Source: a virus (Duplodnaviria; Caudoviricetes). Taken from it: 64,000 nt of DNA. The notes beneath the pieces were generated by a model. That model was not told the origin of the DNA. It worked only from the letters and a program-made list of their open reading frames with translations, and searched no databases. Below, piece by piece: positions 777 to 64,000 of the stretch. Location of the stretch: IMG/VR virus record IMGVR_UViG_3300033070_001371, positions 1-64,000 of that record; one strand, written 5' to 3'. The position numbers and the translations under genes are program-made. Position 1 is the stretch's first letter. Each line of letters opens with the position of its first letter.

Positions 777-806
777 GCCATCAACTTGTGCGGCGCTTTA
801 CGACGT

Positions 807-2879
807 TCAGAGCTCGCCGGAACGATCGAGCTTCGTCGCGACAGGCGCAGGCGGCGGCGCTGCGACCTCTGGCGTCACCTTGTCGGCGAGCACTGCGAGG
901 AATTGGAGCACCTTGGGCTTGTCGTAGGTCGCGGGCATTGGCAGGGCGTTGCGGACCTTGCCGGAGTAGCCCTTGAACGATCCCCACGCGCGCTTGTCGA
1001 GCAGAGCGACAACGCCCATGTCCGTCTCGGCGCGAATCAGGCGCCCGGCGCCTTGCTTGAGGTCCATGATCGCCTCTTGGAAGTCGAAGGCATCCCACGT
1101 CTGAACCTCGGCGCGCCGCTGCTCGTAGCCCTGGTTGGTCAGGCGTTCGACCACGAGGGCCTTGCGCGCGCGGAGCACAACGTCGCCTGCGTTGGGGAAC
1201 GGCAGGCGAGGGATGACGACGAGGCGCAGGCCCAAGCCCGGTACATCGACGCCTTCCCAGAACGTTTTGACCGCAAAGAGCGCTCCGCGCGGCGTCTTGC
1301 GGAACCAGTCGAGCGTCGCTTCGGGTGATCCCGCCTGCGTCGCGATGATGTACGGTGACGCGGCACCCTTTGGGCCTTGTCGCAGCAGGTCGCGGCATCC
1401 GTCGGCGAGATTGTTCATGTCGTCGTACGACGCACACAACACGAACGCGCCGCCGCGCGACGCGACGAGCAGTTCGTGTACCTCGGCGCTCATAGCGGCG
1501 TAGTAATCGTCGCCGCGCCCCGTAGGGTCTGGCGCCGTTGGCGAGACGTACGCCGTCGAACGCGCCTTGTAGTCGAACGGAGACGGCAGCACGGTCTTGA
1601 CGCCGATCTGTCCGCCACTCAGTCCGTACTCGCGCGCCATGTAGTCCATGCCGTTCGCCGTTGCGAGCGTCGCGCTCGTAACGATGACGCGCCCCACGCC
1701 GCGCAGTGCAGGCGCGATTAGGGGGCCTACTTCGATCGGCGTGACGACAATCTCGGGAACTTCGCCGCGCCCACGCTTCTCGACGTAGCAGAGATACTCA
1801 GTGTCGTCGCCGTCGATGATGTCGCCCTCTTCGTCGCGCACGACGTGCTTGCCGAGCACGATCTTCGCGAGCTTGCGGCTTTTGTCGATCAGGGTAGCGC
1901 CGGCCTTGAGCTTGGCGCGTGCTGCCGCCGCGACGCCGCCCGTCGTGTCGACCGGGTCGTCTTCGTCGAGCAGGCCTTTGGAGGCCAGCTTGCTGTAGAC
2001 GCGGTCGAGCTCGCCGTGCAGATCCTCGAAGACCTGCGCCAGCGCAGGCGTCAGGTCGAGCTTGTCGTTCTTCGCCGGTACCGTCGTGAAGATCTCGTTG
2101 TAGATCCCGTCGAGGATCTCGTGCGGCTCGAATTCGGTGCCATCGAACAAGCGCCGAATTGCCTCCGGGTGTTTGTGGTGCAGCTTCAACGAGAACGCTT
2201 CGCGGAAGTACTTTGGAGCCTGATGCGCTTCGTCGATCACCAACGCGTCGTACTTGCCGAGGATCTTGCCGCCGCCTACCGAGAGGTCATAGGCGAGCAA
2301 CGCGTGATTGACGACGACGATCTGCGCACCCATCGCCTTGTCGCGCGCCGCGACGTAGCCGCACGCGTGTTCGGCGTGCGGGCAGCTCTTGCGAACGCAC
2401 TCCGCGACCCGCACTTGACTTTCGAGCGTGAACGGCGGGACGAGCTCAGCAAGGTCGTTGACCTCGCTCTGCTCCATCCACTCTTCGACCGCATGCCGCT
2501 CGTACTGCGGCAGGTGCTTGTACGAGTCGGTCTCCGCGACCTCCTTGAAGCGCAGCATGCACGCGTAGTTGTTCTTGCCCTTGAGCAGGGCGTACGCCGC
2601 CGGCTTGATCTTGCCGCACAAAAACGGCAAGTCCTTCTCGACGAGTTGGTTCTGGAGCGCCTTCTTCGCGGTGGAGATGACGATGCGCTTACCGCTGAGC
2701 AGCGCAGGGATGAGGTACGCGAAGCTCTTGCCGGTGCCGGTGCCGGCCTCCAAGAACGCGATGCCTCCCGCTTCATTCGTGAGTGTTTCTTCGACGATAC
2801 GTGCCATCGTGACTTGTCCTGGGCGGACTGAGCGTGCGATGCCGGCCTGAGTGTTGTTCAACCAATCAACTGCTGCCAT
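807..2879 (-). CDS. dinG: DinG/YoaA-family SF2 DNA helicase (Fe-S)
   Basis: EAGTGTGKS (Walker A), ISTAKKALQNQL, KGKNNYAC plus further Cys, VVVNHALL, DEAH, SATL, FWEGVDVPG, QGAGRLIR; AAGGAG Shine-Dalgarno. Confidence 0.92.
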   Translation of the reverse strand: MAAVDWLNNTQAGIARSVRPGQVTMARIVEETLTNEAGGIAFLEAGTGTGKSFAYLIPALLSGKRIVISTAKKALQNQLVEKDLPFLCGKIKPAAYALLKGKNNYACMLRFKEVAETDSYKHLPQYERHAVEEWMEQSEVNDLAELVPPFTLESQVRVAECVRKSCPHAEHACGYVAARDKAMGAQIVVVNHALLAYDLSVGGGKILGKYDALVIDEAHQAPKYFREAFSLKLHHKHPEAIRRLFDGTEFEPHEILDGIYNEIFTTVPAKNDKLDLTPALAQVFEDLHGELDRVYSKLASKGLLDEDDPVDTTGGVAAAARAKLKAGATLIDKSRKLAKIVLGKHVVRDEEGDIIDGDDTEYLCYVEKRGRGEVPEIVVTPIEVGPLIAPALRGVGRVIVTSATLATANGMDYMAREYGLSGGQIGVKTVLPSPFDYKARSTAYVSPTAPDPTGRGDDYYAAMSAEVHELLVASRGGAFVLCASYDDMNNLADGCRDLLRQGPKGAASPYIIATQAGSPEATLDWFRKTPRGALFAVKTFWEGVDVPGLGLRLVVIPRLPFPNAGDVVLRARKALVVERLTNQGYEQRRAEVQTWDAFDFQEAIMDLKQGAGRLIRAETDMGVVALLDKRAWGSFKGYSGKVRNALPMPATYDKPKVLQFLAVLADKVTPEVAAPPPAPVATKLDRSGEL

Positions 2880-2912
2880 CTTGGGCTTCTCCTTGGGGCT
2901 TCTCCCCGGTTG

Positions 2913-2932
2913 CGAAAGCGGTTACGCTTTCG
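2913..2932. promoter_or_regulatory. Perfect 8-bp inverted repeat in the divergent DinG/tail intergenic region
   Basis: CGAAAGCG-gtta-CGCTTTCG. Confidence 0.45.
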
Positions 2933-2970
2933 AGTCCATATACCACCACTAGGTAAGGGAGTACGACAAG

Positions 2971-3693
2971 ATGACCGACGAACAGATCCGTCGCCCTGGC
3001 GAATACGGCGTAAAGTCCTCCAACACGGCAGCAACTGCACCTCAAGGCGCTCCGCCCGGTGTGCCGCCCGCGCCGCCGCTGCCGCCGTCTGCGCCGGTGT
3101 TCGATCCGCGTAGCCCCACCGACCAGCTCGCGCAGGAGTTCCTCAACGCGACGCCCCCGGCTACGACAGAAGCCGAGCGCGCCAAACAGATCGAAGAGGC
3201 GCGCGCCAAGGCTAAGGAGTACCTGAGCCTGACGCCTGCCGAGCGCTGGCAGCGCAACATCAAGAATGCGGGCATGTCCGAGGACCAAGCCAACGAGATC
3301 CTCGACAAAGTGCTCGACCAGGGCTTTTGGGAGAAGGAGTACGTGCTCTACAACGGACGCCTGAAGCTCACGCTGCGTTCGCGCGACGCTGCTGCCAATC
3401 AGCGCGTCGCCAACGCCCTCGATGAGGTGCGCACGTTCGATCAGCGTGTGCTCGATCAGGCTCGCTTGCGCGTGCAACTCGCGTGCTCCCTCGTGCGCTA
3501 CCGCGATAAGGTCTTGCCGCTGGCTGCTCCCGACGAAGAACCCGCCAAGCACGAGACGGCGTTCCGTGCGCGCTTGGCCTTCTGCGACCAATTCATTGCT
3601 GGACCGGTCGTGGAGTCGGTTTTCCGCGCGTTGATCGACTTCGACGCGAAGACCTACGCAGCGCTGAGCGAGGGTGCTTCCTCGGGTTTCTGA
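2971..3693 (+). CDS. Tail assembly chaperone (gpG-like)
   Basis: Lies directly upstream of the tape measure gene and ends in the slippery heptamer G GGT TTC just before TGA. Confidence 0.7.
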   Translation: MTDEQIRRPGEYGVKSSNTAATAPQGAPPGVPPAPPLPPSAPVFDPRSPTDQLAQEFLNATPPATTEAERAKQIEEARAKAKEYLSLTPAERWQRNIKNAGMSEDQANEILDKVLDQGFWEKEYVLYNGRLKLTLRSRDAAANQRVANALDEVRTFDQRVLDQARLRVQLACSLVRYRDKVLPLAAPDEEPAKHETAFRARLAFCDQFIAGPVVESVFRALIDFDAKTYAALSEGASSGF

Positions 3694-4124: not shown

Positions 4125-7100
4125 ATGCCACCGCCGAACGGGGACCCGCAGTCGCCCGACGTCCAGTACAACTCGATGCAACAGCAGGCCGGGCTCCTCC
4201 CTGCTATTGCCATCCCGCCGCCCGTGGTGTTTCCGGGGCAGATTAGCGCCATGCTCGCCACCGGCGGCCCTGGCGCGGCGATCGGCGCACTGCCGCAGAT
4301 GTTCCCCGGCAACACCTACCAGACGATGACGGGTGCGCCTCCGCTGTACCAGGGACCGACGGGCGTGATGCAGCCGCAGATGCCCAGCGCTCCGTACAAC
4401 CCGTACCCGGGGCCCAACCCTTATGCAGGCCTAGGCAACTCTGGACCGCCGTCGATCTTTGCGTCGCCGTACGCCGCGCCGCCACCCCTCTACGCGGGTC
4501 CGCAAGGTTCGCACGCGGTACCGTTTGGTCCGCCTGCACCGCCGGCGATGTTTGATACGCCGTATGGCGCGCAGCTCGCGCAGGCACAGGCGAGGGATGA
4601 TCGCGCGTTTGCAATGCACGCGTCGGGCGCCGGATTCGGTGCGCGTGTCGGCATCAACGCGCTGGCGGGGATGGCTGGCGCCTCGATGGGTTCACGTTTC
4701 GGGGGATGGGGCGCTGCGATTGGCGGCACACTCGGCTTTTTCGGCGCAGAGTTTGGCGGCCTCGGGCAGGCGGGGCAAAACGCCTTCATGACCAACGGCA
4801 TGGGACCATCTATCCAACAGCGCGCACTCGCGGGAGGTATCGAACATGCCTCGCAAGGGTTCGTGCCGTTTGGAGGGAGTCTGCACGCTTCAGGTGCAGG
4901 TTTCAGTCACCATGCTTCCATGGAAGCTGCTCAGGGTCTCACCGCTCTGGGTAACTCCGCAGCGTTTCGCCGCGAGACATTCGACCGCTTCAACACGCAA
5001 GACTTGTCAAAGATCACGCAGGCCAGCGCGCACGCCGGTCTTATGTCGGGCGTTTCGAACCCCGAGGACATGGTTGGCCGCGTGCGCGACATCGCGAAGA
5101 GCGTCAACGCGTTCATGGAGCTCGCCAAGGAGCCTGACATCCAGCGCGCGATCCAGACGATGGGCTCGCTGCGCGCCAGCGGTCTGAACCTCAGCGAAAC
5201 ACTCGGCGCCGTACAGAGCGGGCGCGCCTTTGCGCGTATGGCGGGTATGTCGTTCCAGGAGATGTCCGAGATCGGCGGAGGTATGGGCTCTTCGACATTT
5301 CAGTCGATGGGCTTGAGCCAAGGTCTCGGTTTCCGCGCCGGCATGGCCAACCTCGGAATCGCGACGGCGTCGCAGAACGCAGGCATTCTGAGCCCGCAGA
5401 TGATGTCGATGGTCGGAGGCGCACAAGGCCTTGCGAACCTAAACAACATGTTCAGCGCGGGCATGCTTCAGCTGCCGATGCTCGCGCCCGGCATGATGAC
5501 CGCCAACGGCGGTTTGAATCAAGGTGCGCTCGAAGGCTTGATGTCTGGTCGCGCTGATCTGTTCTCGATGACGGGTCGAGGATCGAATGTTCTTGGACAA
5601 ATGGCGGGGCGCCACGGGGTCGAAGGCTTGGGCATGGCTGTCGCAATGCAGCCAATGCTTCAAGATCAAGTAGGGCGCCTTATGGCGGCGCAAGGGCCGT
5701 TCGCTCAGCGCAATATTGAAGACACACAGATCACCAACCTCGCTCGGCAAATGAACATGCGAGGTTCCGCAGGCTTCATGACCGCAGCCCAGGCGATGGG
5801 TATGTCGCAGTCACAGGCGTTGGCGCGCGCACAAGAGATGGCGTCTCCAGGCTATTTCGAGGGACAACGCCAACAGATCAACGTGAATCGACGAGAAGCG
5901 CGTGCGGCTGAGCTGCGGCAGCGTGAAGCTGAAGCTCCGGGGATCTTGGATACGTTCGGGCGAGAGACCGGCATCGCTGAAGGTCTTTACGGCGTAAGAA
6001 ACGCGTATCAAGGCGCACGCCAGAGCGCTCTTCACGCCATCGGAGTAGACCACTTGTATGACGTGGCCCCTGCCACCGACGCAGGGCGGCGGCGCGCTCG
6101 GCGGAGGCGTGAAAGCGCGCAGTTCGATACGTTTATGCACAGCGTCGCAGAAGAAGGCACCACGCTGAATCGCAGTTCCAACGGGGGCATGAACGCTCTT
6201 CGCGACAGTTATGACCTTGCGGAGATGCGCGGCGGATCAAGTTTGGTGAATGTTTTTGCTGCCCCAGTCATCGCGGGAACCACATCGCGCGCAGAGCGAC
6301 GCGGGGAGCTTCGTGACTACGCTGAAGGGCGCAGGTTGTCGGGCCTTATCGCGAGCACGACGGATCGAGAGCGAGAACGTCTCGCAGGTTCGACATCCCG
6401 GCTCTTTGGTGAGGGTGAAGCTGGAATTCGCGCGCAGCAAGAGTTCGGGCAGAGTTTGGCGGGCTTGATGGGCGGCGCAGGGCGTACACCCACGGGCAGC
6501 CTCGGCATGAGCATTAACGGCGGTTTCCGCGCAGGTGTCATGAGTGTAACCGGGGGCCTTATCGACCCTGGAAACATTTTGGGTTCGGGAGCTACGTCGG
6601 GGGATCAAATTCGCAGAGCGTATGTCGACACTCTGCGTCGATCAGGTCAGACGCAAGCGCAGATCGAAGCTCGACTCGCCGCCGGAGGCTTGTCCCAAGC
6701 GGTCCAAGCAAGTTCTGGTGCAGCGTTGGACGTCATGACGCCCGAGCAACGGCAGCGTATGTACCAAGACTTGGAACGAACCAACACTGGAGGGCGAGGC
6801 GGAGGCTTCAACCAAGCTTTGCAAGCCCGTGAAAACACCGCACGTAGCCGCTTGTTGGGCAGCAACGCTTCTGCTGAAGATACTTCTCGCTTCCTGCATC
6901 AGTTCGAGAACATCGAAGGCATCGGACGCGAGGGTAGCGCGAAGCACGAATTCTCTCGTCGATACATGATGGCTCGCGCGCAACTTGTTGCTGCCGCAGA
7001 TCAAGGCGGTGAACGAGGGCAACGCGCTCGGCGTCAGCTTCAAGATTTGGCTGTGGAAGCTTCTCGCAACGGGGTTTCAGCCACGGAGCTGGAAGGCTTG

Positions 7101-8068: not shown

Positions 8069-9237
8069 CCGCCGTCTACGCCCCTGGCCGTGATCGTCCC
8101 CCGTCTTCTGGCGTCGGAGGGGGCTCATCGTACTCGCCGTCGCGCGGCGCGGGCGGAGTATTTGCCGAGTACCTTCAGGGTTTCACGCCGAAGTACGCCG
8201 CCAACCGAGGGTACCGGAGTGACCTGTTCCGAAATACGCTCGCGCGTATGTTCGTGCGTGTCGACGCGTCGGAGATGAACCTCTTCTTGGCGTCGATCTC
8301 CGACGCGCACACGCAGAACCAGCTCGCGCCGCGCATCGCAGGCGACCCGACGCAGCGCCAGCGCAACCGTACGCGCGGCGGCGCCGGTTCGCAGGACGCC
8401 CAGGTGCGCGCCAACCAGACGTTCGCGACGAACGGCTACCTCGACTTCTTCATCTCGCAGGCGTCGATGCCGCTCCAGGAAAAGGTCGACGTCAAGGACA
8501 CGCTCGCCGACAACTACGTGGCGTTCTTCTTCGGTCAGCAGCCACCTGTCTGGTCGTTCACCGGATGGTTGATGAACACGGTGCAGGATGATCAGGCGAC
8601 AAACTTCCTGCGTCTGTACTTGGAGATCTTGCGCGGCACACAGCTCGCGCGTCGTCAAAAGATCATCAACTTGAAGATCGACTCATACGTGATCACGGGC
8701 GCAATGACGGGCATCAGCCCGACGCTCAACGCGAACAGCGAGATCTATGTTCCGTTCGCGTTTCAGCTGCTCGTCAAGCGGGTTGACTTCGTCAATTACA
8801 CGCGTGGATGGGTTCCGACGCGCGCCTTTACGCCGTTTGCTGCTGACCCGAACGCAATTCCGTATGACGGACGCGCCCGTAACTCCGGCGCACGTCTCGC
8901 GATTGCTGGACGCGTTCCGCCGAACACCGAGGAAGTCGCTCCGGTGCCCAATCGGTCGGAGGACTCGCGCGTAAATCAAGCGCCCATCTCTGCCGACCCG
9001 CTCGCTTCTGTACCGCCGTTGCTTCGGCGTACGGACCCGAATGCGCCGCAGCCTGCACAGTCGTTCGTCGACTCGTTGTCGAATGGCCTTCCTGGTCAGG
9101 CCCAAAGCAGCACGGTACGCGTGCCGTTGCGTGATCCTCAGACGCCCGAGGCTCCGGTCTACTCGTCGCAGCCAGAGACGCTCAACTACTCGACGCAGAC
9201 CAATCAGTCGCGCGCACAGCCCCTGGTGAGTCGCTGA
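8065..9237 (+). CDS. Putative tail tube initiator or baseplate-associated protein
   Basis: Position after the tape measure gene; beta-rich core (YVAFFFGQQPPVWSFTGWL) and a Pro-rich tail. Confidence 0.45.
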   Translation: MTAVYAPGRDRPPSSGVGGGSSYSPSRGAGGVFAEYLQGFTPKYAANRGYRSDLFRNTLARMFVRVDASEMNLFLASISDAHTQNQLAPRIAGDPTQRQRNRTRGGAGSQDAQVRANQTFATNGYLDFFISQASMPLQEKVDVKDTLADNYVAFFFGQQPPVWSFTGWLMNTVQDDQATNFLRLYLEILRGTQLARRQKIINLKIDSYVITGAMTGISPTLNANSEIYVPFAFQLLVKRVDFVNYTRGWVPTRAFTPFAADPNAIPYDGRARNSGARLAIAGRVPPNTEEVAPVPNRSEDSRVNQAPISADPLASVPPLLRRTDPNAPQPAQSFVDSLSNGLPGQAQSSTVRVPLRDPQTPEAPVYSSQPETLNYSTQTNQSRAQPLVSR

Positions 9238-10364: not shown

Positions 10365-13300
10365 ATGCCCTTTGACCCTAGCGCGTCGCGCTCTGGCAGC
10401 ATCTTCTCTGACGTCCCGAACTACGCGGCGGCGTGGGTCTGCTACATCAATGGCCGCGAAGTTCCGATCCTCGGGTTCGAGGTCGAGTACGGCGTCTGGC
10501 AGATCCCGACGTTCCGCATCCACTGCATCCCGGACGTGACGATTCAGCGCCTCGGTCACGAGGACCGCGTGCCGGTGCAGCTGTTCTACCTGGATGAGTG
10601 GGCTAACGACACACCGACGTTTCGGTTGCTCGTCGACGGCGAGATCGCAGGCTGGAGCTTCTCGTCGTCGTCAGGCTCGCGCGCAATCGTGTTCAGCTGC
10701 ATCGCGAACATCCACGTGTTCCAGCAGCTGTACTTCTTCTACATGACGAACGTCGACGACATCGTCGCGTCACGTTCGCCGGAAGTGCTCGCGCAGGGCT
10801 TCACTACGCCGGGGCTGCTCTACCCCTATGCGATCTTCCACCAAGGTTTGCTTACAACTGCCGCCCAGGCCGAGGAAGTAACGCCGCGCGACCAGAACCA
10901 GCAGGCCGCCTCGAACAGACTGGCCGCCAGTGATGACGCCGCATCCGATACGCAGGAATCAACTGCGACAATTCAGGCGCCATACGAGCTCGTCACCAAC
11001 GTCATCAAGGGCTGCATCTCGTCGACGGTCCCGAACGAGCGTCGCGCCGTGCCGATGATGAACTTCTTCGCGCGCTACATCCGCAAGACGCGCTTCCACA
11101 ACCGCTGGGTGCGCCTGCCGATCTTCGAGGACGCCGCGACGCTCGCGAACCGGCAGGGCGTGTTTCCGATCTTCAACGCTGCGCGCAATGACCAAGCCCT
11201 GATCGCGATGCAGCGGCAGGTCGTGTCGCAGGTCGGCAGCTCGGGCCCCGTCTGGAACCTCTTCCAGCAGGTGCTCGGGCTCGTCTACATGGACATCGCG
11301 ATGATCCCGAACCCCGCGTGCGTGCAGGTGCAGCTCGCGGCGGCGGGACCGAACCAGCCCGAGGAGGGCAAGATCCTCCGGCTGCTCGCCGACAACGCCG
11401 CGACCGTGACGACGCGGCGAGGAGTGAACCCGCAGCAGCTGCGTGACCGCGCCGGGCAGATCGCCAACGACCTGCGACGCGGGCTCCAGTCGCAGGTCGA
11501 GACCGGACCGAACCTGCCGCTCGACCCCGCGCTGCTTCAGGAAGCGGGCCTTGCGTCGACGCCGGCCAACGCGGCGGCGATCGACGAGGAGCAGATCTTT
11601 CAGACACTGCTCCGACGCGCAAACGAAACTGCCGCACGCAACGGCGACACCGACCGCACGACGATCAACCCCCAAGAGCCGATCCGGCTGGCGCAATACG
11701 CCGTAAAGCCCCAGTTCCTGTTCGGTGAAGTTCCAGCCTGCAACGTCATCATGCCGTCGATGATCGACTCGTGGACCTACGACGAGTCGTACATCAATCA
11801 ACCGACGCGCATCTACATCAACGACAGTGTTATGACGCGGCTGCTGCGCGCGCAGGGCAACAACCGGGAGTTCATGCTCCACGCACTCACCGTCGGTTTC
11901 CCCGAGGAGGCTGACGCGCTGATGCACCACCGCGTCGCGTCGAGCGCCAACGAGGGCGCGGGCGGCGCGCCCGGCGCGACCGAGTCAGGCCGAAACTTGC
12001 TGCTCTGGCCAGAGGAGTACTACAAGGGGCCGGTCACCGCGCGCGCGGCGCTGCCTGCGTGGTTCCAGATGCTTCGGCAGTTTGCCAACAGCCAGGGCAC
12101 TGGAGACGATCCGACTCCGAATTCACCGATGAGTGGGCAAGCCGCGCAGACGCCAGCGAACAACGTGCCCATCACGACGCGCACGGTTGAGATCCCGCGC
12201 TCTACGACGTACGCCAACAACGCCAACGACAATACGACGCCGGCTGCACCGGTGATCGACCAGACGCAACCTACCTACGCGCGCCGCGTGCCGTTTGGGC
12301 GTACCGAGCGTGTTTCGCTCAACGGCGCACTCGCGCCGCGCTTCTGGCTACGCACCGGTGGCGGCCTGGACCCGGCGAACTATGTGCCCGCACAGCAGAC
12401 CGCTCTTTGGCCGTTGCCTCCGCCTCGCACGACCAACCGGCGCGGGCGACAGGCTCAAGTGCAAGCTCCAACGCAGCGTCGTTCAACAGTACAGAAGATG
12501 GCTCAAATGATGCGCCTCCTTCTGCCTCTCTGTCGGCAGGCGTTCAGCGGCCTCACCGAGGACCAGCTCATCGCCGTGACGTTCGCGGTGTACTGGGTGT
12601 CTTTCAACGAGCAAGGAGTCACAGGCTACGTCTCGTGGGCGCTCGGAAACCAAAAACAGTACGACTCCTCTCCTGTTGGACATTGGACCGTTAGTCCATG
12701 GGATCGACAACCCTACGTGGCCGCTACTACGCCCCAAGAAGGCGCACAGCGCCATGTGAACTGGCTCGTACTTAACCAGCAGATGGCCCTTCGCGCCTTG
12801 CTTACGGGGCGCGGCAGTGCAGAGTTCAACGCGTACGTGGCTTCACGCGGATACACGGCCAACGCGTTCTGGCAAAACTTCTCGCCTATCCGCCCGGACC
12901 TCTACTACATCGCGCTCGGCTATGGCGGTTATTACGGCACCGAGAACGTCAGCGACCCCGAGCGCCGAGGCGACATCGGCTTCGCGCGAACGCGCTCGCA
13001 GGCGTCGTTCTTCACGCGCATCCGTGCGCTCTTCCAGAACAACACGATCCCAGAGGACGTGGTATCGGTGCGCCCCTACGTAGGCGCGGTCTACCGCCCC
13101 TTGTTTCGCGAAGAGGATCGTCCGCTGCTCAACTGGGGGCGTCCACGCGCGCAGGAGACTGTGGTGTCTCGCCGTATCCCGCGTGTTGCGGCCAGCGGGC
13201 AGACGGCGCTGCCGGGTACGGCCAACGCAAGCGCGAACCAACCCAACCGCGATGCTTCGTCCGGCGCTACCGCGCAACAGACCGTGCAGGGCGCGCAGGA

Positions 13301-14504
13301 CCCGACGACTACGAACGCACAAGAGGCCACTGAAGGAGATCAGTTCGCACGGCTCTTCCGCCTCTACGCGCAGTACGAGTACCTCAAGCAGCGCTATTCA
13401 CAGCGAAACGCGGGTGCGAATCTACGCTTCAACCCGTACCTTGTGCCGGGCTTTCCGGCGATGCTCTTCGATTCTATGCGCACGCGCATGCACTGCGTGG
13501 GCTACCTCCAGAACCTCTCGCACGCAGGTTTCGCGTCGACGGGAGGTGTCTCGATGTCGACGACGGCGCGCTTGTCGTTTTGCCGCACGATCCACGAATT
13601 CATCAACGACGTGCGCAACGACGCCAACCGCTTCGCTGGCCGCGTGACTTCGGCTCCCGCTGAGATCATCGACGAGATCCGCGTCATCATCCAGGATGAA
13701 AACCGCGCCGAGGAGTTCTACCAGCGCTTCTTCTACGGCGGAGCGCGACCGAATCGCGTACCTGCCGTCTTCCGTTGGGACCGGGCGCTGGGCTACGCAC
13801 GGGGACTCGACGTCGAAGAGATCTCAATCATCGGGGAACCCGTCGAAACGACGGTCGCGCGCCAGCAGCGCGCCGATGCTGCCGTGCGCGCGCAGGTCAA
13901 CGAGGAGAGCACGGTCGGCGCAGAGAACACTCAGCCGAACCCTGCGTCGGCGAACACTTCGGCGCAGGCTGGCGGCGTCGCGTCCGAGGGACAACAGACC
14001 GTCCGACACAATCTCGACCCGAACGAGGAGCTCGCACCCAACCCGCGCACTGTTTACGCCGACGCCTTCGACAACTACCACGTCGCGATGCAGCTCGCGT
14101 CACGCCCGGTGTGCACGCTGGAGCAGTACATCCGCTTCTGGCACGGAGGCCGAACCATCAACGACCTGCTAGCCACGGGCGACGTAGAGACGCCGAACCT
14201 CGACTTCGCGTACTACACCGAGCAGGTCAACGACGTGGTGGCTTCAGGTCGCGCCGGCACGGAGGTTCGCGCTACGACGAGCCGCTCGACGGCCGTTTAC
14301 TACGAGCGCATCTTTCGCCTGCGTCCTGGTCCAGGGCCCGAAGCGACGGCTGAACAACGCGGCTACACGGACCCGCCGAATGTGCAACCGAGTTCGACAA
14401 CGGCGGGTGTACCGGCCAACTACCCCCAGACGCGCGCGGACTGGGACAGCGTGCTTGTCTTGTACGTGCAGAAGGTCCGGCGCCTGCTCAGCCCGGGGAC
14501 GTAA
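10365..14504 (+). CDS. Baseplate hub or tail-associated lysin with an internal GH73-like muramidase domain
   Basis: Hub-like N-terminus (WVCYINGREVP...LVDGEI) and C-terminus (LRFNPYLVPGFP...VGYLQNLSH); central NEQG...WALGNQK...TPQEGAQRHVNWL...GYGGYY segment. Confidence 0.6.
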   Translation: MPFDPSASRSGSIFSDVPNYAAAWVCYINGREVPILGFEVEYGVWQIPTFRIHCIPDVTIQRLGHEDRVPVQLFYLDEWANDTPTFRLLVDGEIAGWSFSSSSGSRAIVFSCIANIHVFQQLYFFYMTNVDDIVASRSPEVLAQGFTTPGLLYPYAIFHQGLLTTAAQAEEVTPRDQNQQAASNRLAASDDAASDTQESTATIQAPYELVTNVIKGCISSTVPNERRAVPMMNFFARYIRKTRFHNRWVRLPIFEDAATLANRQGVFPIFNAARNDQALIAMQRQVVSQVGSSGPVWNLFQQVLGLVYMDIAMIPNPACVQVQLAAAGPNQPEEGKILRLLADNAATVTTRRGVNPQQLRDRAGQIANDLRRGLQSQVETGPNLPLDPALLQEAGLASTPANAAAIDEEQIFQTLLRRANETAARNGDTDRTTINPQEPIRLAQYAVKPQFLFGEVPACNVIMPSMIDSWTYDESYINQPTRIYINDSVMTRLLRAQGNNREFMLHALTVGFPEEADALMHHRVASSANEGAGGAPGATESGRNLLLWPEEYYKGPVTARAALPAWFQMLRQFANSQGTGDDPTPNSPMSGQAAQTPANNVPITTRTVEIPRSTTYANNANDNTTPAAPVIDQTQPTYARRVPFGRTERVSLNGALAPRFWLRTGGGLDPANYVPAQQTALWPLPPPRTTNRRGRQAQVQAPTQRRSTVQKMAQMMRLLLPLCRQAFSGLTEDQLIAVTFAVYWVSFNEQGVTGYVSWALGNQKQYDSSPVGHWTVSPWDRQPYVAATTPQEGAQRHVNWLVLNQQMALRALLTGRGSAEFNAYVASRGYTANAFWQNFSPIRPDLYYIALGYGGYYGTENVSDPERRGDIGFARTRSQASFFTRIRALFQNNTIPEDVVSVRPYVGAVYRPLFREEDRPLLNWGRPRAQETVVSRRIPRVAASGQTALPGTANASANQPNRDASSGATAQQTVQGAQDPTTTNAQEATEGDQFARLFRLYAQYEYLKQRYSQRNAGANLRFNPYLVPGFPAMLFDSMRTRMHCVGYLQNLSHAGFASTGGVSMSTTARLSFCRTIHEFINDVRNDANRFAGRVTSAPAEIIDEIRVIIQDENRAEEFYQRFFYGGARPNRVPAVFRWDRALGYARGLDVEEISIIGEPVETTVARQQRADAAVRAQVNEESTVGAENTQPNPASANTSAQAGGVASEGQQTVRHNLDPNEELAPNPRTVYADAFDNYHVAMQLASRPVCTLEQYIRFWHGGRTINDLLATGDVETPNLDFAYYTEQVNDVVASGRAGTEVRATTSRSTAVYYERIFRLRPGPGPEATAEQRGYTDPPNVQPSSTTAGVPANYPQTRADWDSVLVLYVQKVRRLLSPGT

Positions 14505-25919: not shown

Positions 25920-25940
25920 TTTACGCCGTTCGGACGCGGT

Positions 25941-45717: not shown

Positions 45718-45722
45718 GTGGG

Positions 45723-47416: not shown

Positions 47417-47417
47417 G

Positions 47418-53530: not shown

Positions 53531-53584
53531 CTCTCCTTTGGCGAGCAGAAGGGCTCACCACGGGCTTTTACCGCGTACAGACGC

Positions 53585-53596: not shown

Positions 53597-56500
53597 GTGA
53601 TGAACGAGCTCACGCCTGTGCTCACCAGCGCGACCACGCTGCGCGAGAAGCTGCACAACAAGACGACCCAGGCCCTGACGGCCGCGTTCCCGCTCGACCT
53701 GAAGGGACGAACATTGGAAGTCAAGGACGTGCGTGTGCACGGGCAAGACTACGGACCAGCTGAAGAGTACGCGGCGATCACCAAGGGCTCATCGCTGTAC
53801 GAGCCGGTCAAGGGTACGCTCATCCTCAAGGATGCGCACGGCAAAGTCGTCGATGAAGCAAAGAACTTCACCCTCGTGCATGTACCGTTTCTGACGGCAC
53901 GCCACACCATCATCGCCGACGGCAACGAATATCAAGTCGCCAACCAGCTGCGACGCAAGCCGGGTGTATACACACAGCGCGCGGACAACGGCGAACTGAA
54001 GACCGTGTTCAACCTCGGACGAGGCAAGAACTTCGATCTTGCCTTCAACCCGGACAAGGGCACGTTCCACCTCCAGTACGGCACATCAAATCTGCCCCTT
54101 TACGCCGTATTGCGCGGCCTCGGTGTCGAGCACAACCAGATCGCCAAACACCTCGGAGAGGGTGTCGCCAAGGCCAACGAAGAAGAGCACGGACATCAGG
54201 TCGCGACCACCATCAGCAAACTCTATGCGAAGCTGGAACACCCTGCCGTCATGGACGCCAACGCGCCGCACGAAGCAAAGATCGAAGCCGTGCGCAAGCG
54301 CTACGACCAATCGACGCTGGACCCCGAAGTCACAACCGTGACGCTCGGGGCCCCTCACGCCAAGGTCACGCCCGACGCGCTGCTCGTGGCCGCCAAGAAG
54401 ATGCTCGACGTGCACGCAGGCAGGACGCCAGTCGACGACACCGACTCGCTGAAGTTCAAGACGTTCCACGCGCTAGACGACTTCGTCGCGGAGCGCATCC
54501 GTCTAACGGCGCGCCAGTGGGCACCCAAGGCCAAGATGGCGCTGACGGGCAAGACTGTGATCCGCGACGCGCTCAAGCCGGCGCCGTTCTCGGACTCGAT
54601 CCGAAAGTTCCTGACAACGTCCTCGCTCTCCAGCGTGCCCACCGGCATCAACCCGATGGAGATCATCGACCACGCCGTGAAGGTGACGAGCCTCGGCGAG
54701 GGTGGCATCCCATCGGACCGCGCGATCCCGATGGACGCACGCATGATCCACAACACGCACTTCGGCGCGCTCGACCCCATCCGCACGCCGGAGTCGAATC
54801 ACTCCGGCGTCGACATCCGCGCAACGATCGCCGCGCACCGCGACGACAAGGGCAACCTGTACACCGTTTTGCGCAACGTAAAGACCGGCAAAGACGAGTT
54901 TGTGCGCGCGGGCGATCTACACAAGTACGTCGTCGCGTTCCCGCACCTGGAGCTGAAGGGCACGGTCGACGCGTTCGTCGACGGCCACCAGACGCGCGTA
55001 CCGGCGTCGCGCGTGACGCACCAGCTCGGGCACGTCAAGCACCTCTACTCCCCGGCGACGTCGCTGATCCCGATGATCCACTCGATCCAGGGCAACCGCG
55101 CCATCATGGGGTCGAAGATGGGTACGCAGGCTCTGCCGCTTGTCGAGCGCGAGGCTCCGCTCGTCCAAGTCATGTCGCACCACCCTGACGGCCACTCGTT
55201 CGAGGCGATCTACGGGCACATGATCGTGCCGACCGCGCCGGTCGCAGGCACGGTGGCGAAGGTCGACGACCAGTTTGTGTACATCAAGCCGCACGCCGAG
55301 AAGCGGAGCGCAGCGGGCGACGCAGCCCTGGTCAAAGTGCCCTACTACGAAAAGTTCCCGTTTCCGTCGAAAACGTTTCTTGATCACGCCGTTGACGTGA
55401 AGGTCGGCGACAAGGTCGAAGAGGGTCAGCGCCTCGCGGAATCGAACTACACGCGCGACGGCGTGCTCGCGCTCGGCAAGAACCTGCGCGTCGGCTACCT
55501 GCCGTACTACGGGTACAACTCCAACGACGCGGTCGTGATCTCCGACGCGGCGTCGAAGAAGCTGACCAGCGAACACATGTACCGCGAGGTCTTCCCGCTC
55601 GGCACGGGCATCGAGCTGAACCGCGCGAAGCACCATCTCTACTACGGCGCGAAGTACCCCGCGCAGATGTACAGCAAGCTCGACGAGGGGGGCGTCATCA
55701 AGAAGGGCGCGAAGGTCGACCCGAAGGACCTGCTTGTCGCGGGCCTGATGAAGCAGGCCGTGACCGGCACCGACGCGATGCTCGGACGCCTCGGCAAGTC
55801 ACTCGTCAAGCCGTTCAAGGACATCGCGCTCGTGTGGGACCACGGCGTGCCAGGCGAAGTCGTGGACGTGGTGCGCGCGAGCGGCCAGATCACGATCCTC
55901 GTGAAGACGCGCGAGGCCATGCAGGTCGGCGACAAGCTCGCGGGCCGCTACGGCAACAAGGGCGTCGTCGCAAAGATCGTCCCGGACCACGAGATGCTGC
56001 GCGACGAGCAGGGGCACCCGCTCGACCTGCTGCTCACCTCGGCCGGCGTCGTCTCACGCATCAACCCGGCGCAGGTCATCGAGACGGCCGTGGCGAAAGT
56101 CGCGGACAAGACCGGCAAGCCGATCGTTTACGACAACGCAGCGGGGCATAACGCCGTAAAGTGGGCGCGCAATCTGATGCGCGAGCACGGCGTCAAGGAC
56201 AAGGAGGAGCTCTACGACCCGGTGCTCCAGCGCAAGGTCGTGGGCGCGGACGGCAAGGGCGTGCTCGTCGGCAAGCAGTACATCTACAAGCTGTTCAAGA
56301 GCACCGACACCAACTTCGCCGGGCACGGCGTCGGGCCGTACGACCTCAACGAGCAGCCACTCAAGACCGGCGGCGACGAGAGCGCCAAGGGCCTCGGCAA
56401 AATGGAGTTCGACGCGCTGCTCGCGCACAACGCACGCAACTTCCTGCGCGAGGCCGCGACGGTGCGCGGCCAGAAGAACGACGAGTACTGGAAGGCCGTG

Positions 56501-58610: not shown

Positions 58611-58987
58611 TGCCGGACCTCAAGGACATCGCGCGCGGCGTAACGACCCGCCTCAAGAAGCGTCAGCGAGGTTTTCACTTCGACAAGGAGCCGGGTTTTT
58701 ACGGCGTAACAAAGAGCTTCGGCGACGCCGCCAAGCAGAAACTCGCCAGCGAAGCGCGCGCTCGTGCGATCCGCAAGGTCGCGGCGAAGTACGCGCTGCT
58801 TGACGAGTCGGGCGAACCTGTGGAAGCGCTCGCGAAGCTCTTTGCACAGAGTAACTTCGGTTACGGCGACGCGCCCGTCGCCCCGAAGCGTACCGGCGAC
58901 CCCCTCTGGGGCGCGTCGATGGGTATGCCGGCGGAGCCCGGCGACCGCAATGGGCTGAGCCGCAATCTCACGTACGGAGGAGTTTGA
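58610..58987 (+). CDS. Small putative head protein
   Basis: TGATG coupling; KLASEARARAIRKVAAKYAL. Confidence 0.55.
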   Translation: MPDLKDIARGVTTRLKKRQRGFHFDKEPGFYGVTKSFGDAAKQKLASEARARAIRKVAAKYALLDESGEPVEALAKLFAQSNFGYGDAPVAPKRTGDPLWGASMGMPAEPGDRNGLSRNLTYGGV

Positions 58988-59357: not shown

Positions 59358-61157
59358 ATGCCCACGACGGTCGGCCAGTTCCTGATCAATGACGTGATGC
59401 CCGAGGGTTACAAGATCTCGGGTCCGCTCACGAACAAGGCGCTACACGACCACGTCGTCGGTCTCGCCAAAGCGGACCCTCAGAAATACGTCTCGACGGT
59501 GCTCGCGCTCAAGCGGCGCGGCGACGAAATCGCGACGCTCGAAGGCATCTCGGTCGGGCTCGATGACATTGAGCCCGACTACGAGGCGCGCGACGCGATC
59601 GTGCGCCCGGCGCTCGCGAAGCTCGACAAGCTCAAGGACCCGGGAGCCCGCGAGCGCGTGATCGTCGAGACGCAGGCGCAACTGCTCGCGCACACCAAGC
59701 AGCACCCTGGTTCGATGACCCACATGGCGCTCTCAGGAGCGCGCGGCAATCCGGCGCAGCTCATGAAGATCGTCGCCACGCCGCTCGCGACAGTGAATCC
59801 AAAGCACGGCGTGGTTCATCAGCTGATCGACCGCTCGTACTCCGAAGGCCTGACTCCAGCCCAGTACTGGTTGACAGGACCAGAGATCCGCGAGAACGAG
59901 GTCAAAGCGCGCATCTCCGTCTCGGAGCCGGGAGAGATGGCCAAGGTTCTCGTCGCCAACATGATCTCTAAGGTCGTCACGACGACCGACTGCGGGACCA
60001 TGAACGGCGTAAAGATGTCGATCGACGACGGACACGTGCTCGATCGCTTCACGCAGGCTGACCACGGCTTGCCGCGAAACACCCTCGTCACGCCGCAGCT
60101 CGTCCAGCAACTCAAAGCGCGCCACGTGGACCGTGTACTTGTGCGCTCGCCGATGACATGCGTCGCGCAACACGGGGTCTGTCAGATGTGCCAGGGTCAC
60201 AACGAGAAGGGACAACCGCACCCGATCGGCATGACTGTAGGCGTGCGTGCCGCGCAAGCGATGGCTGAACCGTTGACGCAGATGGCGCTTTCGTCGCGCC
60301 ACGGCACGCTCACGGTGAAGGCCACGGACAAAGCGCCGACCGGCTTGAAGGGTGTGCGCCAGCTGTTGGAAGTTCCTGCCGCTTTCCGCCACGAAGCGGT
60401 GCTGGCGCCAGAGCACGGCACCGTGACGAAAGTCGAGAAGGCGCCGCAAGGTGGCCACTATATCTACCTCGGCGCCAAGAAGGTCTACGCCGGGCCTGAC
60501 CTGACGCTGCGCGCGAAGGCGGGAGACGTGGTCGAGCGCGGCGATGCGCTGACCGACGGCGTGCCTCACCCTGCGAAGGTCGTCGGCTACAAAGGACTTG
60601 GTGCCGGTCGTGCGTACTTCGTAGACGCACTGCACAACTTATACAAGAATGAAGGGATCAACCTTGATCGCCGCCACTTGGAACTTCTCGCCAAGAGTGA
60701 GATCAATCACGTACGGCTACTCGACGCTGATCCCGACCACCCAGAGCTGCTCAAGGGCGACATCGTCAACTACAACGCCTTCCGCGAGGCGTACCAGAAG
60801 GGCTCCGCTCGCGTGCAGGTAGATGACGCTGTAGGGAAGCGGCTGGGGCAAGAGGTGTTGCATCACACTGTCGGTACACCCGTGACGCCTGCGCTCGCCC
60901 GCGATCTCAAAGCGCACGGGGTTGCTGAGGTCTATGTCAACCGGTCTATGCCTCCGGTGGAATTCGTCATGAAGCCGTTCACAATGAATCCTCTGCTGGA
61001 GAAGGACTGGATGGCCCGCCTCGCGCACCGCTATCTCAAGAGCACGATTCAGGAGGCGGCACACTTCGGCGAGACCGCCGACATCCACGGAACCCACCCC
61101 GTACCGGCGTATGCTTTCGGCGCGGAACTTCACCATGGAGCCGGCGGTGCATTCTGA
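59358..61157 (+). CDS. RNA polymerase beta' C-terminal half
   Basis: TTVG, SGARGN, SYSEGL, DCGT, VRSPMTC...CQMCQG, AAQAMAEPLTQM (trigger loop), GLKGVRQLLE, RRHLELL. Confidence 0.92.
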   Translation: MPTTVGQFLINDVMPEGYKISGPLTNKALHDHVVGLAKADPQKYVSTVLALKRRGDEIATLEGISVGLDDIEPDYEARDAIVRPALAKLDKLKDPGARERVIVETQAQLLAHTKQHPGSMTHMALSGARGNPAQLMKIVATPLATVNPKHGVVHQLIDRSYSEGLTPAQYWLTGPEIRENEVKARISVSEPGEMAKVLVANMISKVVTTTDCGTMNGVKMSIDDGHVLDRFTQADHGLPRNTLVTPQLVQQLKARHVDRVLVRSPMTCVAQHGVCQMCQGHNEKGQPHPIGMTVGVRAAQAMAEPLTQMALSSRHGTLTVKATDKAPTGLKGVRQLLEVPAAFRHEAVLAPEHGTVTKVEKAPQGGHYIYLGAKKVYAGPDLTLRAKAGDVVERGDALTDGVPHPAKVVGYKGLGAGRAYFVDALHNLYKNEGINLDRRHLELLAKSEINHVRLLDADPDHPELLKGDIVNYNAFREAYQKGSARVQVDDAVGKRLGQEVLHHTVGTPVTPALARDLKAHGVAEVYVNRSMPPVEFVMKPFTMNPLLEKDWMARLAHRYLKSTIQEAAHFGETADIHGTHPVPAYAFGAELHHGAGGAF

Positions 61158-61779
61158 CTTCGCGGATCGACTGAACGCCGTAAAGACAGCGGCCCGGGCG
61201 CGCGTGCTCGGACGGTACGGGCTTAAGGACCTGTTCCGCGAGCACACCATCGCCCCGGCTGCGCCCGGTGTCACCAACAAGGCCAAAGCATTCGGCAAAC
61301 ACGTCGCAGAATTCGGACGCGAGGCTGTCTTCGGTAGTCCGATCACCGTCGCAAAGCAGCTCGCTGACCGCTACAAGCAAACCGGTAGCGTCGCCCGAGC
61401 GATGGGCGGCCACGCCAAAGACTTCTACCTCTCACCCGGATCGCCGACATGGCTGAAGGCCCTATCCCTCGGTATGCCCGCGATGGAGCTCGGTAACATC
61501 GCGCTGCGCGGCGACCCAGAGACTCGCAAGGGCGACATCGCACACGCGATCTCGGGCATGGCGGCTGCGCCGTTCACGGCGCGACTCGGCCTGCTCGGCA
61601 TCCCAGTCCAGGGCGCGGTACAGGGTGCCGCGCGCTACTTGGGGTCGAAGTTCGACCCGAAGCCTGCCCCAACACCCACGCCCGAAAATATCGAGCTGGA
61701 CGTACCGAAACACCTGATGCGCGCGTGGAAGAGCAACTCTCCGCTCGCGCTGAGCGACGACAACCCCGCTGCGACCTAG
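61147..61779 (+). CDS. Putative internal head protein
   Basis: GTG 61147 after GGAG (alternative 61111); VKTAARARVLGRYGLK; amphipathic Gly-rich C-terminus. Confidence 0.55.
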   Translation: MHSDFADRLNAVKTAARARVLGRYGLKDLFREHTIAPAAPGVTNKAKAFGKHVAEFGREAVFGSPITVAKQLADRYKQTGSVARAMGGHAKDFYLSPGSPTWLKALSLGMPAMELGNIALRGDPETRKGDIAHAISGMAAAPFTARLGLLGIPVQGAVQGAARYLGSKFDPKPAPTPTPENIELDVPKHLMRAWKSNSPLALSDDNPAAT

Positions 61780-63418: not shown

Positions 63419-63451
63419 TCGCCTCCGACTTGATAGTCTTGCGCTAGGTCA

Positions 63452-63495
63452 GAACGCCTGCTGCCGTATACTTCGGTAGCAGGCGTTCGCCTTTT
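63452..63495 (+). terminator. Hairpin with T-tract (intrinsic terminator or 5' UTR stem)
   Basis: GAACGCCTGCTGCCG-TATACTT-CGGTAGCAGGCGTTC followed by GCCTTTT. Confidence 0.6.
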
Positions 63496-63511
63496 GAGGA
63501 GACCCACCCCG

Positions 63512-64000
63512 ATGACCATGAACGGCTTCCCCCTCTCGCAGTCGCCCCGCACGCAGGGCTTCGCGCAGCCCACGAGCCCCGACGACGAGGAGGAGCTCTT
63601 CTCCAAGGGCTTCTCGGACCTCGCGTACCGAGCGTTCCAGAAGACACACCCCGAGCTCTACGGTGACCTCGTCTCGTTCCGTGTGTTGGCAACCGACGCG
63701 CCGAACGGCGAAGGCGTCGGCGCGTTCATTCTCAAGCGTGGTCCCGAAGTGTTGTTCGTCCCGTCGGTGATTGCGGATAACGCCGTAAAGCCGCTCGACA
63801 TGATGTACGTCCGGTCCAAGGACCGCTTCTATCCGCTGACGTCCGAGTGGATCGAGAAGGCCACCTCGGGCGGCGTGAGTTCGCTCGGACAGGGCATCGA
63901 GCCTCCGAAGGACCTCAACACCGACGTGGACATCCGCAACGTCGTGGTGCCGCCGACGACGGGCCGCTACAGCTACGCCGACGAGTTCGATCCTGCGTCA
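63512..64000 (+). CDS. Putative large head or virion protein, partial
   Basis: GAGGAG Shine-Dalgarno; the frame is open to the window end (MTMNGFPLSQ...FSDLAYRAF...GVGAF...KPLDMMY...). Confidence 0.65.
   Translation, partial: MTMNGFPLSQSPRTQGFAQPTSPDDEEELFSKGFSDLAYRAFQKTHPELYGDLVSFRVLATDAPNGEGVGAFILKRGPEVLFVPSVIADNAVKPLDMMYVRSKDRFYPLTSEWIEKATSGGVSSLGQGIEPPKDLNTDVDIRNVVVPPTTGRYSYADEFDPAS

Follow-up and report, generated by a model that had tools for sequence, protein, structure and literature searches.

A 12-bp word, (C)TTTAC-GSC-GT-W, recurs at even intervals along the chromosome of a virus of the Caudoviricetes (Duplodnaviria) represented by the linear IMG/VR record IMGVR_UViG_3300033070_001371 (119,215 bp, designated G000), whose first 64 kb constitute the window analysed here. 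The same record encodes an orphan ParB-like protein, and we consider it probable that the word is the specific binding and loading site of this protein, which would coat the chromosome from sites laid out for coverage. The available evidence largely supports the view that the array is a ParB/parS-type system used chromosome-wide, a use that we did not find described in the literature.

An initial annotation of the window had counted 34 copies of TTTAC-N3-GT. All were present, with the central triplets GGC (16), GCC (9), CGC (3), GCG (2), GAC (2), GGT (1) and CCT (1); a 35th match absent from that count, TTTACTGTGT at 22385, probably arose by chance. The rough zero-order expectation given at the time was about 2 loose copies, and well under 1 for the main 10-mers. 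The 35 matches to TTTACNNNGT compared with 1.65 ± 1.2 in dinucleotide shuffles (maximum 5), and the two main 10-mers together were found 25 times against an expectation of 0.18. Across the whole record there were 65 loose copies (about 3 expected) and 43 copies of the strict word, which tops the over-representation list among 9-mers and 10-mers, and a reversed-pattern control produced 0 matches in the record. As annotated, the word occurs on both strands and is usually preceded by C. A logo of the 65 sites gave this C in 47, followed after TTTAC by G in 54, a central S, C in 57 and, after GT, a W position (A in 35, T in 23); no conserved information was detected beyond the 12-bp word out to ±20 bp. 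Two sites noted as matching 12 of the 13 positions of an ideal palindrome (5986 and 58698) and a one-mismatch copy at 14053 were also real.

By our own gene calls, made anew for the record (114 genes covering 91% of it), 47 sites are genic and 18 intergenic, representing a threefold excess in spacers. In the window about 29-30 of the 35 sites lie within genes, close to the 29 or so annotated. Genic sites were found on the coding strand (26) and antisense (21) and use five of the six reading frames; the sixth would give a TAA stop. The use of five frames in both gene orientations indicates that the word is neither a peptide motif nor a promoter. A peptide-motif reading was ruled out by the frames, and a promoter or terminator reading by the 26 to 21 strand split, the occurrence of intergenic sites in both directions and the lack of a second conserved element within ±20 bp.

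To control for coding constraint, synonymous codons were permuted within each gene, retaining every protein and the per-gene codon usage. This codon-preserving null had been proposed with the annotation, and the enrichment survived it: shuffled records contained 27.3 ± 2.8 loose matches compared with 65 observed, and 11.2 ± 1.4 strict words compared with 43. The 18 intergenic sites are unaffected by the shuffle; for genic sites alone, 47 were observed where about 9 are expected (z of about 13). Several sites contain TTA, the rarest leucine codon of the phage (0.44 per 1000 codons).

The distances between sites were far more uniform than chance allows. Gaps in the window averaged 1852 bp with a maximum of 3399 bp, in line with the annotated mean near 1.9 kb and limit of about 3.4 kb, and their coefficient of variation (CV) was 0.455 compared with 0.975 under the null (0 of 20,000 simulations so low). 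For the whole record the CV was 0.43 (0.434) against 0.99 ± 0.12 for uniform placement (again 0 of 20,000 simulations so low, P<5e-5), the largest gap was 3653 bp where 8768 bp is expected, and the gap distribution had a gamma shape of about 3.9 around a pitch of about 1.8 kb. In this phage, as in at least ten relatives, the gaps reject a Poisson process. The annotation had described an evenly spaced grid; the evenness stands, but not as a fixed-phase lattice, which was ruled out because successive gaps are uncorrelated (lag-1 correlation about 0), indicating a renewal process whose gaps are narrowly distributed.

Each strand alone had gap CVs of 0.85 and 0.77, resembling random thinning, so that evenness is a property of the pooled orientations and orientation is irrelevant to it. 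Strand-specific functions such as lagging-strand priming, Chi-like sites or one-strand nicks are not favoured, since the evenness is seen solely in the pooled strands. With this arrangement 98.8% of bases lie no more than 1.5 kb from a site and the farthest base is 1,826 bp away; random placement covers 80.6% at 1.5 kb, and the best of 300 simulations reached 89.6%. Selection therefore appears to act on coverage rather than on particular places.

Arrays in related phages

A search with the RNA polymerase gave 21 IMG/VR loci at 33-96% identity, and 18 whole records were taken for comparison. Word and pitch (one site per 1.7-1.9 kb) are both unchanged in the closest relatives: 44 sites in 78 kb (G001), 24 in 46 kb (G004), 19 in 32 kb (G005) and 9 in 16 kb (G002). 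The word is also kept in G007 (loci L040-L046), despite a guanine-plus-cytosine (GC) content of 49.1% compared with 63.5% in G000; its RNA polymerase is 83% identical and its DNA 73%, and the shift of 14 GC points perhaps follows a change of host.

More distant lineages use other words, all built on one 5+3+5 plan and including true palindromes in sister lineages: tTTCAC-GNC-GTGAAa (G019, G003), tTTCAC-NNN-GTGAAa (G012, G013), gTAC-GNC-GTAc (G020, G021, G009), TTAAC-CNG-GTTAa (G011) and, in sparser arrays of low-GC genomes, the full palindrome TTTAC-NNN-GTAAA (G015, G008). The ideal palindrome that the annotation had envisaged is thus the motif of these lower-GC relatives, but not of the phage studied here, whose word is asymmetric. 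Examples are TTTACGGCGTAC from this phage and GTACGGCGTAC, TTCACGGCGTGAA and TTAACCGGGTTAA from sister lineages. The G012/G013 array has a degenerate centre; it was missed by an exact k-mer search and found by a gapped-dyad search. Arrays with other spellings were even as well, with CVs of 0.36-0.65 compared with about 0.97 (P <0.0002 to 0.002).

Sites were conserved above their surroundings. In the five same-word relatives the fixed motif positions had an identity of 0.91-1.00, compared with 0.72-0.83 for the flanks. G001 keeps 30 of 32 G000 sites (fixed positions 0.987, flanks 0.834), G005 16/16 (1.000, 0.804), G002 8/8 (1.000, 0.812), G004 17/23 (0.907, 0.747) and G007 34/44 (0.955, 0.720), where about 4 of the 44 would be expected at 72% identity. 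The annotation had proposed looking for conservation or compensatory turnover, and of these the conservation was found; local turnover between G000 and either G007 or G004 gave no clear signal, in a test that is weak because the lower GC of G007 raises the background. Between motif classes merely 1-2 of about 25 mapped genic sites coincide, indicating that arrays have been rebuilt at new places with their spacing statistics retained. Taken together, the enrichment, spacing and conservation tests favour the annotation's proposal of selected sites covering the chromosome, onto which a protein would load.

These data also dispose of composition, codon usage or repeated peptides as an artefactual source of the signal. 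The codon-preserving shuffle does reproduce part of the excess (about 9 genic matches, compared with about 3 from base composition), but this falls far below the 47 observed, and neither codon usage nor peptides would account for five frames in both orientations, 18 intergenic sites, conservation above the flanks and non-Poisson gaps in ten genomes. The shuffle, frame, conservation and spacing tests refute it, and we give it practically no weight.

A different word was enriched in G017 (loci L100-L102), a distant relative of 38% GC: TGCTGGTG has 10 copies where 0.84 are expected, with a gap CV of 0.50. It overlaps the E. coli Chi sequence GCTGGTGG, which may hint at an enterobacterial host and use of Chi.

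The ParB-like protein and its gene module

The product of the gene that we call parB matched the ParB family (PHROG 4715 / ParB-like, E 5e-16), and phmmer against solved structures returned Spo0J (1vz0, E 7.5e-7), Noc (7.7e-5) and ParB, with KorB 8qa8 as a weak match (E 0.37). Both boxes that bind cytidine triphosphate (CTP) in the ParB superfamily could be aligned with Spo0J 1vz0: AAGRRRREG with GERRYRA (GxRRxRA, box II) and QENLKR with VENLQR (ENLxR, box III). Residues G113, R114, R116, N149 and R152, together with VSQ of the recognition helix, are invariant in 10 orthologues of 21-78% identity, and E148 is nearly so. A profile of ten orthologues reached chromosomal ParBs at E of about 1e-26, and about 21 close ParB clusters exist among 5.8 billion proteins.

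An AF2 model (predicted local distance difference test, pLDDT, 83.7) was matched by Foldseek to nucleotide-bound ParB (7bnk/7bnr, with CDP/CTPgS, E 1.5e-10), Noc and KorB (8qa9_B, TMt 0.75). The helix-turn-helix (HTH) is spanned by the alignment to Spo0J and Noc, and in the model it matches the DNA-binding domains of Noc/ParB (6y93, 6s6h). A homodimer model scored 0.58 against 0.00 for the best control, with an interface at residues 281-340 in the C-terminal helices. Of 30 proteins solved as pairs of one chain, 20 attain the mark applied, as does 1 of 23 solved as single chains; the runs share at least 65% of contacts, and the pLDDT of the partner is at least 72. Because ParB dimers are solved, the pass may reflect likeness to known ParBs. 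The C-terminal domain family PF23552 of Pfam had no match in the protein.

The likeness to a KorB operator drawn in the annotation holds in that a protein of the ParB/Noc/KorB fold is encoded, but it does not extend to the KorB family proper, as the KorB domain PF08535 had no match at E <= 1 in the record. Traits of ParABS systems are likewise missing, with no adjacent ParA ATPase and no N-terminal LG(R/K)GL peptide. Among the roughly 110 genes of the record, which is estimated by CheckV to be 69% complete, no ParA (CbiA/AAA_31-type), SMC protein or DNA methyltransferase was detected. At its N-terminus the ParB-like protein has a disordered tail rich in K, T and E, and after it a conserved aromatic-acidic peptide, (F/W)-x-(Y/W)-E-(F/L)-(L/V)-P, at residues of about 36-46 (about 46640-46670, minus strand), which is modelled with high confidence and present in nearly all orthologues. 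It occupies the position of the ParA-binding peptide of canonical ParBs and so may dock another partner.

The records of 15 relatives include the syntenic locus, and in every one a profile hidden Markov model (HMM) identified a ParB homologue there; the homologues of G014, G015, G008 and G018 had been missed by single-sequence tblastn. ParB identity across relatives is 24-75%, compared with 63-88% for the RNA polymerase, the faster evolution that is expected if specificity shifts. Within the TTTAC-GSC-GT clade the residues of the recognition helix are conserved, and they differ from one motif class to another. No simple recognition-helix code was found.

Upstream of parB, within 46690-47416 (minus strand), 640 bp that seem non-coding in fact contain a pair of conserved small genes on the strand of parB, missed or misframed by standard lists of open reading frames (ORFs). 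ORF-A, a zinc-ribbon gene, is kept in 11 records. ORF-B homologues precede parB in all lineages examined, and the differences between G000 and G007 are almost all synonymous in its frame; its model has four helices (pLDDT 75), and searches of Pfam and PHROG assigned it to no family, while Foldseek gave nothing at E <= 0.001. The neighbours of parB are a sigma-like gene, ORF-B, ORF-A and an exonuclease gene. By position, ORF-A and ORF-B are possible partners of the ParB clamp in the manner of KorA/TrbA. A second mini-ORF with a CxxC...CxxC pattern possibly lies at 47207-47416 (minus strand).

One array site lies within ORF-A and serves as an anchor. A site at -375 to -388 from parB is present in G000, G007, G004, G009, G021 and G020, representing two motif classes, and it was the only site found to stay in place across motif classes. 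Its codons, CCT TTA CGG CGT ACG (P-L-R-R-T), include the rare TTA. The outer arm tracks the lineage, reading ...CGTAC where the motif is TTTAC..GT or GTAC..GTAC and ...CGTGAA in G003; in G011 the anchor is TTTAC-CCG-GTTCA, TTTACCCGGTTCA. This respelling alters the ORF-A peptide, from LRRT to LRRE (G003) and LPGS (G011).

Proposed mechanism and alternatives

We propose that a ParB dimer, joined via its C-terminal helices, would recognise the site with two HTH domains, bind a nucleotide in the GxRR/ENxxR pocket and close as a clamp round the DNA. The nucleotide would probably be CTP; some ParB folds bind ATP or GTP instead (PMC12704722). The clamp would then slide off over roughly a kilobase or more. 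With sites every 1.8 kb or so (half-pitch about 0.9 kb), neighbouring loading zones would overlap if the reach resembles the 1.5 kb of KorB (PMC11790492), and the whole chromosome of about 170 kb could thereby be covered or marked with ParB. Selection for coverage would explain why the array is even, why strand, frame and gene make no difference to it, why rare codons are tolerated and why, over long times, spacing is retained but place is not. On balance we think that ParB does read the sites and that coverage is the selected property. The more specific proposal of a partner-less ParB clamp with a self-written array pitched to its sliding range, in which drift in specificity leads the array to be re-laid and the anchor to be respelled in place, is tentative and we hold it with some doubt. 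Under it, a family of large phages would use this protein coat over all of their DNA to gather it, shield it or mark it as self.

As to purpose, our best guess is that the coat brings replicating phage DNA together, compacts it or marks it as 'self' in the course of infection. Alternatively, the array may serve to control transcription globally, as KorB does, and ORF-A and ORF-B might act as partners in this. Of the roles listed in the annotation (compaction, shielding, segregation, entry, silencing), none can be singled out.

Several observations weigh against ParB as the reader of a coverage array. The Pfam matches to ParB_N (21.3 bits, cut-off 26.3) and HTH_ParB (18.6 bits) are both under the curated cut-offs. 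The site in this phage is asymmetric, which is unusual for a symmetric dimer: with the second half weak at position 11, such a dimer would meet a good arm on one side and a poor one on the other. There is no one-to-one mapping of HTH residues to motifs, as G020 has SAS and G009/G021 have PGK with the same motif, and the covariation of HTH and motif is confounded by phylogeny. The array is accompanied by ORF-A and ORF-B no less faithfully than by ParB, so that either of the two could be the reader. G014 (loci L081-L087), an 83% complete genome, has a divergent ParB homologue, and none of our searches found an array in it; its syntenic homologue at about 5.3-6.6 kb has GHSR for GRRR, lacks VSQ and contains large insertions, and this lineage may carry a decaying or repurposed system. 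The arrays of G015, G008 and G018 are sparse, at one site per 3.8-6 kb. Only one genome, that of phage Arash, serves as negative control; it is complete and has no ParB_N match, no ParB by profile HMM and no evenly spaced over-represented word. Finally, 31% of the G000 genome is absent from the record, and the phage family has no known cultured member.

These points leave room for another reader. That a different phage protein (ORF-A, ORF-B or an unannotated DNA-binding protein) reads the sites, with ParB as its neighbour or downstream partner, would accommodate the conservation of ORF-A and ORF-B beside parB in all lineages with no assigned function, the position of the anchor inside ORF-A, the imperfect mapping of HTH to motif and the large share of record genes (most of them) without a family. 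We nevertheless regard it as unlikely, as the half-sites equal parS half-sites (PMC7022226), 5+3+5 dyads suit a dimeric HTH protein, and ParB alone in the record has a recognised DNA-binding fold known to use dispersed palindromes of 13-16 bp; a 63-aa zinc ribbon by itself is unlikely to specify 12 bp. The sites might instead be targets of a covalent event, base modification or nicking, by an enzyme perhaps recruited by ParB. Phage ParB homologues activate 5mYOX thymine dioxygenases (PMC13229309), one arm of the motif is T-rich, an HNH endonuclease is encoded somewhere in the 98-119-kb part of the record, and 31% of the genome is unseen. The ParBs linked to 5mYOX lack a DNA-binding domain, however, and the enzymes prefer contexts of 2-3 nt (PMC13229309), unlike the HTH and 12-bp word found here; no Tet/JBP dioxygenase (PF12851) was matched in the 69%-complete record, just as no DNA methyltransferase was, and a modification target by itself leaves selection for even spacing unexplained. 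We judge a covalent target quite unlikely.

Use of the sites by a host protein (a host ParB, a nucleoid protein, or machinery for uptake or recombination), with spellings that differ with hosts, appears very improbable. Uptake sequences of competent bacteria are likewise over-represented, evenly spaced and present in both orientations. Some chromosomal ParBs bind hundreds of half-parS sites (PMC7022226). Against a host reader, the spelling changes together with the fast-evolving ParB of the phage and with the anchor inside the parB module, Arash lacks both ParB and an array, and a 3-bp spacer does not fit canonical parS.

Among known systems, KorB and its operator OB on the IncP plasmid RK2 are similar in several respects (PMC11790492, PMC13584720, PMC13768133). 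KorB is an HTH protein of the ParB-CTPase fold with 12 OB dispersed over the replicon, and 8qa9_B gives the best superposition on the phage ParB model. OB, TTTAGCGGCTAAA, is a 13-bp palindrome with a central S, a layout shared by phage words of the TTTAC-GSC-GTAAA type, and KorB slides to promoters 1.5 kb away (PMC11790492), a distance that we liken to the half-pitch of the phage array. The small KorB partners KorA and TrbA might have counterparts in ORF-A and ORF-B. In contrast to KorB, the phage ParB lacks PF08535, has a weak sequence match and has no IncC/ParA partner, and its array comprises at least 65 sites, mostly genic and even, in a lytic-type phage, compared with 12 sites at promoters in a plasmid. 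The site itself differs from OB in being asymmetric, one arm plus GT-W; symmetric forms are found in G019 and G003 (13-bp TTCACG-S-CGTGAA) and in G015 and G008 (TTTAC-NNN-GTAAA).

Noc resembles the phage ParB as a ParB paralogue without ParA that has dispersed palindromic sites and, in its own case, CTP-dependent spreading, and it is among the best sequence and fold matches. Unlike what is proposed here, Noc tethers DNA to the membrane by an N-terminal amphipathic helix and blocks division, and to our knowledge its NBS sites have not been reported as evenly spaced. Chromosomal ParBs share the GxRR and ENxxR motifs, and the half-sites TTTCAC/GTGAAA of their canonical parS, TGTTNCACGTGAAACA (PMC7022226), are those of G012, G019 and G003, set 3 bp apart in the phages. 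ParB of Pseudomonas aeruginosa binds hundreds of half-parS sites (PMC7022226), indicating that one arm can suffice, as the asymmetric phage word would need. The phage system differs from chromosomal ParB-parS in the 3 extra bp, the tiling of the genome in place of an origin-proximal cluster, and the lack of ParA and of LG(R/K)GL.

Dispersed repeats have also been described in other phages. Cluster O mycobacteriophages such as Corndog harbour over 30 instances of a 17-bp dyad (7+3+7), about a third of them genic, which are unexplained, and encode the ParB-like gp90 (PMC4351075). Like the array studied here, these dyads are genome-wide in a lytic-type phage and not tied to promoters; they differ in family and word and are denser towards one end, with neither evenness nor a link to ParB proposed in that account. 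The stoperators of Cluster A mycobacteriophages, as cited in PMC4351075, are dozens of 13-bp words bound by one phage protein. In the same citing account they are asymmetric, oriented with transcription and bound by a temperate immunity repressor to stop transcription, unlike the sites here, which have random orientation relative to genes and a ParB as candidate reader. Our literature search returned no paper describing a genome-tiling array of ParB sites in a phage or assigning a mechanism to such arrays.

Known roles of ParB proteins are to bind centromeres (parS), to guard the division site (Noc) and to regulate plasmids (KorB); if the proposal is true, whole-chromosome tiling would be a fourth use of the CTP-switch clamp and a rare case in which spacing, beyond site sequence, is visibly under selection. 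The family, with at least five spellings, would offer a natural experiment in the joint change of specificity of a DNA-binding protein and dozens of sites. The idea may also explain the dispersed dyad repeats of other phages, e.g. Cluster O mycobacteriophages, and lineage-specific ParB/site pairs could become orthogonal DNA-labelling tools. Candidate purposes of such an array include compaction, protection from nucleases or defence systems, transcription control and packaging.

Feature coordinates, gene content and environment

The sites of the window and the main genes discussed are collected in Table 1.

Table 1. Array sites (pattern matches to TTTACNNNGT, genic or intergenic by our own gene calls) and selected genes of the window
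Feature	Position	Strand	Context
Site TTTACGACGT	797..806	+	intergenic
Site TTTACGCCGT	3005..3014	-	genic
Site TTTACGGCGT, then AAG	5986..5995	+	12/13 of full palindrome
Site TTTACGCCGT	8827..8836	+	genic
Site TTTACGGCGT	11698..11707	-	genic
One-mismatch copy TTTACGCCGA	14053..14062	+	within largest gap of the window
Site TTTACGGCGT	15097..15106	-	genic
Site TTTACGGCGT	15891..15900	+	genic
Site TTTACGCGGT	18160..18169	-	genic
Site TTTACGGCGT	20398..20407	+	genic
Loose match TTTACTGTGT	22385..22394	+	atypical centre; lost in G007
Site TTTACGGCGT	22649..22658	+	genic, TTA codon
Site TTTACGGCGT	24601..24610	+	genic
Site TTTACGCCGT	25920..25929	+	between convergent genes
Site TTTACGCCGT	27406..27415	-	in ribonucleotide reductase gene
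Site TTTACGGCGT	28549..28558	+	genic
Site TTTACGCCGT	30691..30700	+	genic
Site TTTACGGCGT	32841..32850	+	genic, TTA codon
Site TTTACGACGT	34220..34229	+	genic
Site TTTACGCCGT	35165..35174	-	genic
Site TTTACGGTGT	36753..36762	+	in DNA polymerase A gene
Site TTTACGGCGT	38475..38484	+	in DNA polymerase A gene
Site TTTACCGCGT	41245..41254	+	genic
Site TTTACGCGGT	43586..43595	+	intergenic
TTTACCCTGT	44854..44863	+	intergenic, upstream of sigma-like gene; weak centre
Site TTTACGGCGT	44983..44992	+	in sigma-like gene
Anchor site TTTACGGCGT	47160..47169	-	in ORF-A, 387 bp upstream of parB start
Site TTTACCGCGT	47875..47884	-	in PD-(D/E)XK exonuclease gene
Site TTTACGCCGT	50649..50658	-	in SNF2 helicase gene
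Site TTTACCGCGT	53567..53576	+	intergenic, upstream of RNA polymerase gene
Site TTTACGCCGT	54099..54108	+	in RNA polymerase beta-beta'N gene
Site TTTACGGCGT	56151..56160	-	in RNA polymerase beta-beta'N gene
Site TTTACGGCGT, then AAC	58698..58707	+	12/13 of full palindrome
Site TTTACGCCGT	60004..60013	-	genic
Site TTTACGGCGT	61175..61184	-	genic
Site TTTACGGCGT	63780..63789	-	genic
parB	45726..46775	-	350 aa from conserved start MTTET; ParB_N domain, HTH, helical C-terminal dimerisation region
ParB_N match	46329-46544	-	in parB
ORF-B	about 46750..47082	-	about 90-110 aa, helical; directly upstream of parB, probable GTG start, overlaps end of ORF-A
ORF-A	47049..47237	-	63-aa zinc-ribbon protein (CPTC...CPNC); first gene of ORF-A/ORF-B/parB
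PD-(D/E)XK (RecB/Cas4-like) exonuclease genes	42393-43526 and 47418-48233	-	flank the sigma/ParB module
SNF2 helicase gene	48931-50976		
Multisubunit RNA polymerase	53597-58144	+	1515-aa chain: Rpb2 (beta) domains, then Rpb1 domains 1-2 (N-terminal half of beta')
Rpb1 domain 5 match	59358-61157 (probably)		separate gene

The parB module is surrounded by replication and recombination genes (polymerase A, the two exonucleases and the SNF2 helicase). The exonucleases and the helicase are possible players if a ParB coat separates phage DNA from host DNA. Elsewhere the record encodes replication and nucleotide functions (family-A DNA polymerase, B12-type ribonucleotide reductase, helicases), sigma-like factors, a gpA-type terminase and T4 gp5-like baseplate parts, together with many proteins without a family. 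The fused beta-beta' form of the RNA polymerase is common to Arash and to Vibrio phages D69 and D181. Among phages with a name, the closest are Salmonella phage Arash (181 kb) and the Vibrio phages D69, D148 and D181 (187 kb), with only about 35% RNA polymerase identity.

ARAGORN called a tRNA-Lys(CTT) at 11333-11403 (minus strand), antisense within a 1379-aa gene (10365-14504), which is probably a false positive. Near-identical DNA is contained in river and wastewater metagenomes. For positions 44000-50000 of the window, all sampled words were present in a small 2025 run without an organism label (X1, 282 million letters), and 15% of them in two small runs, each labelled as a single organism; these three runs may represent an enrichment, an isolate or a virome with this phage or a relative.

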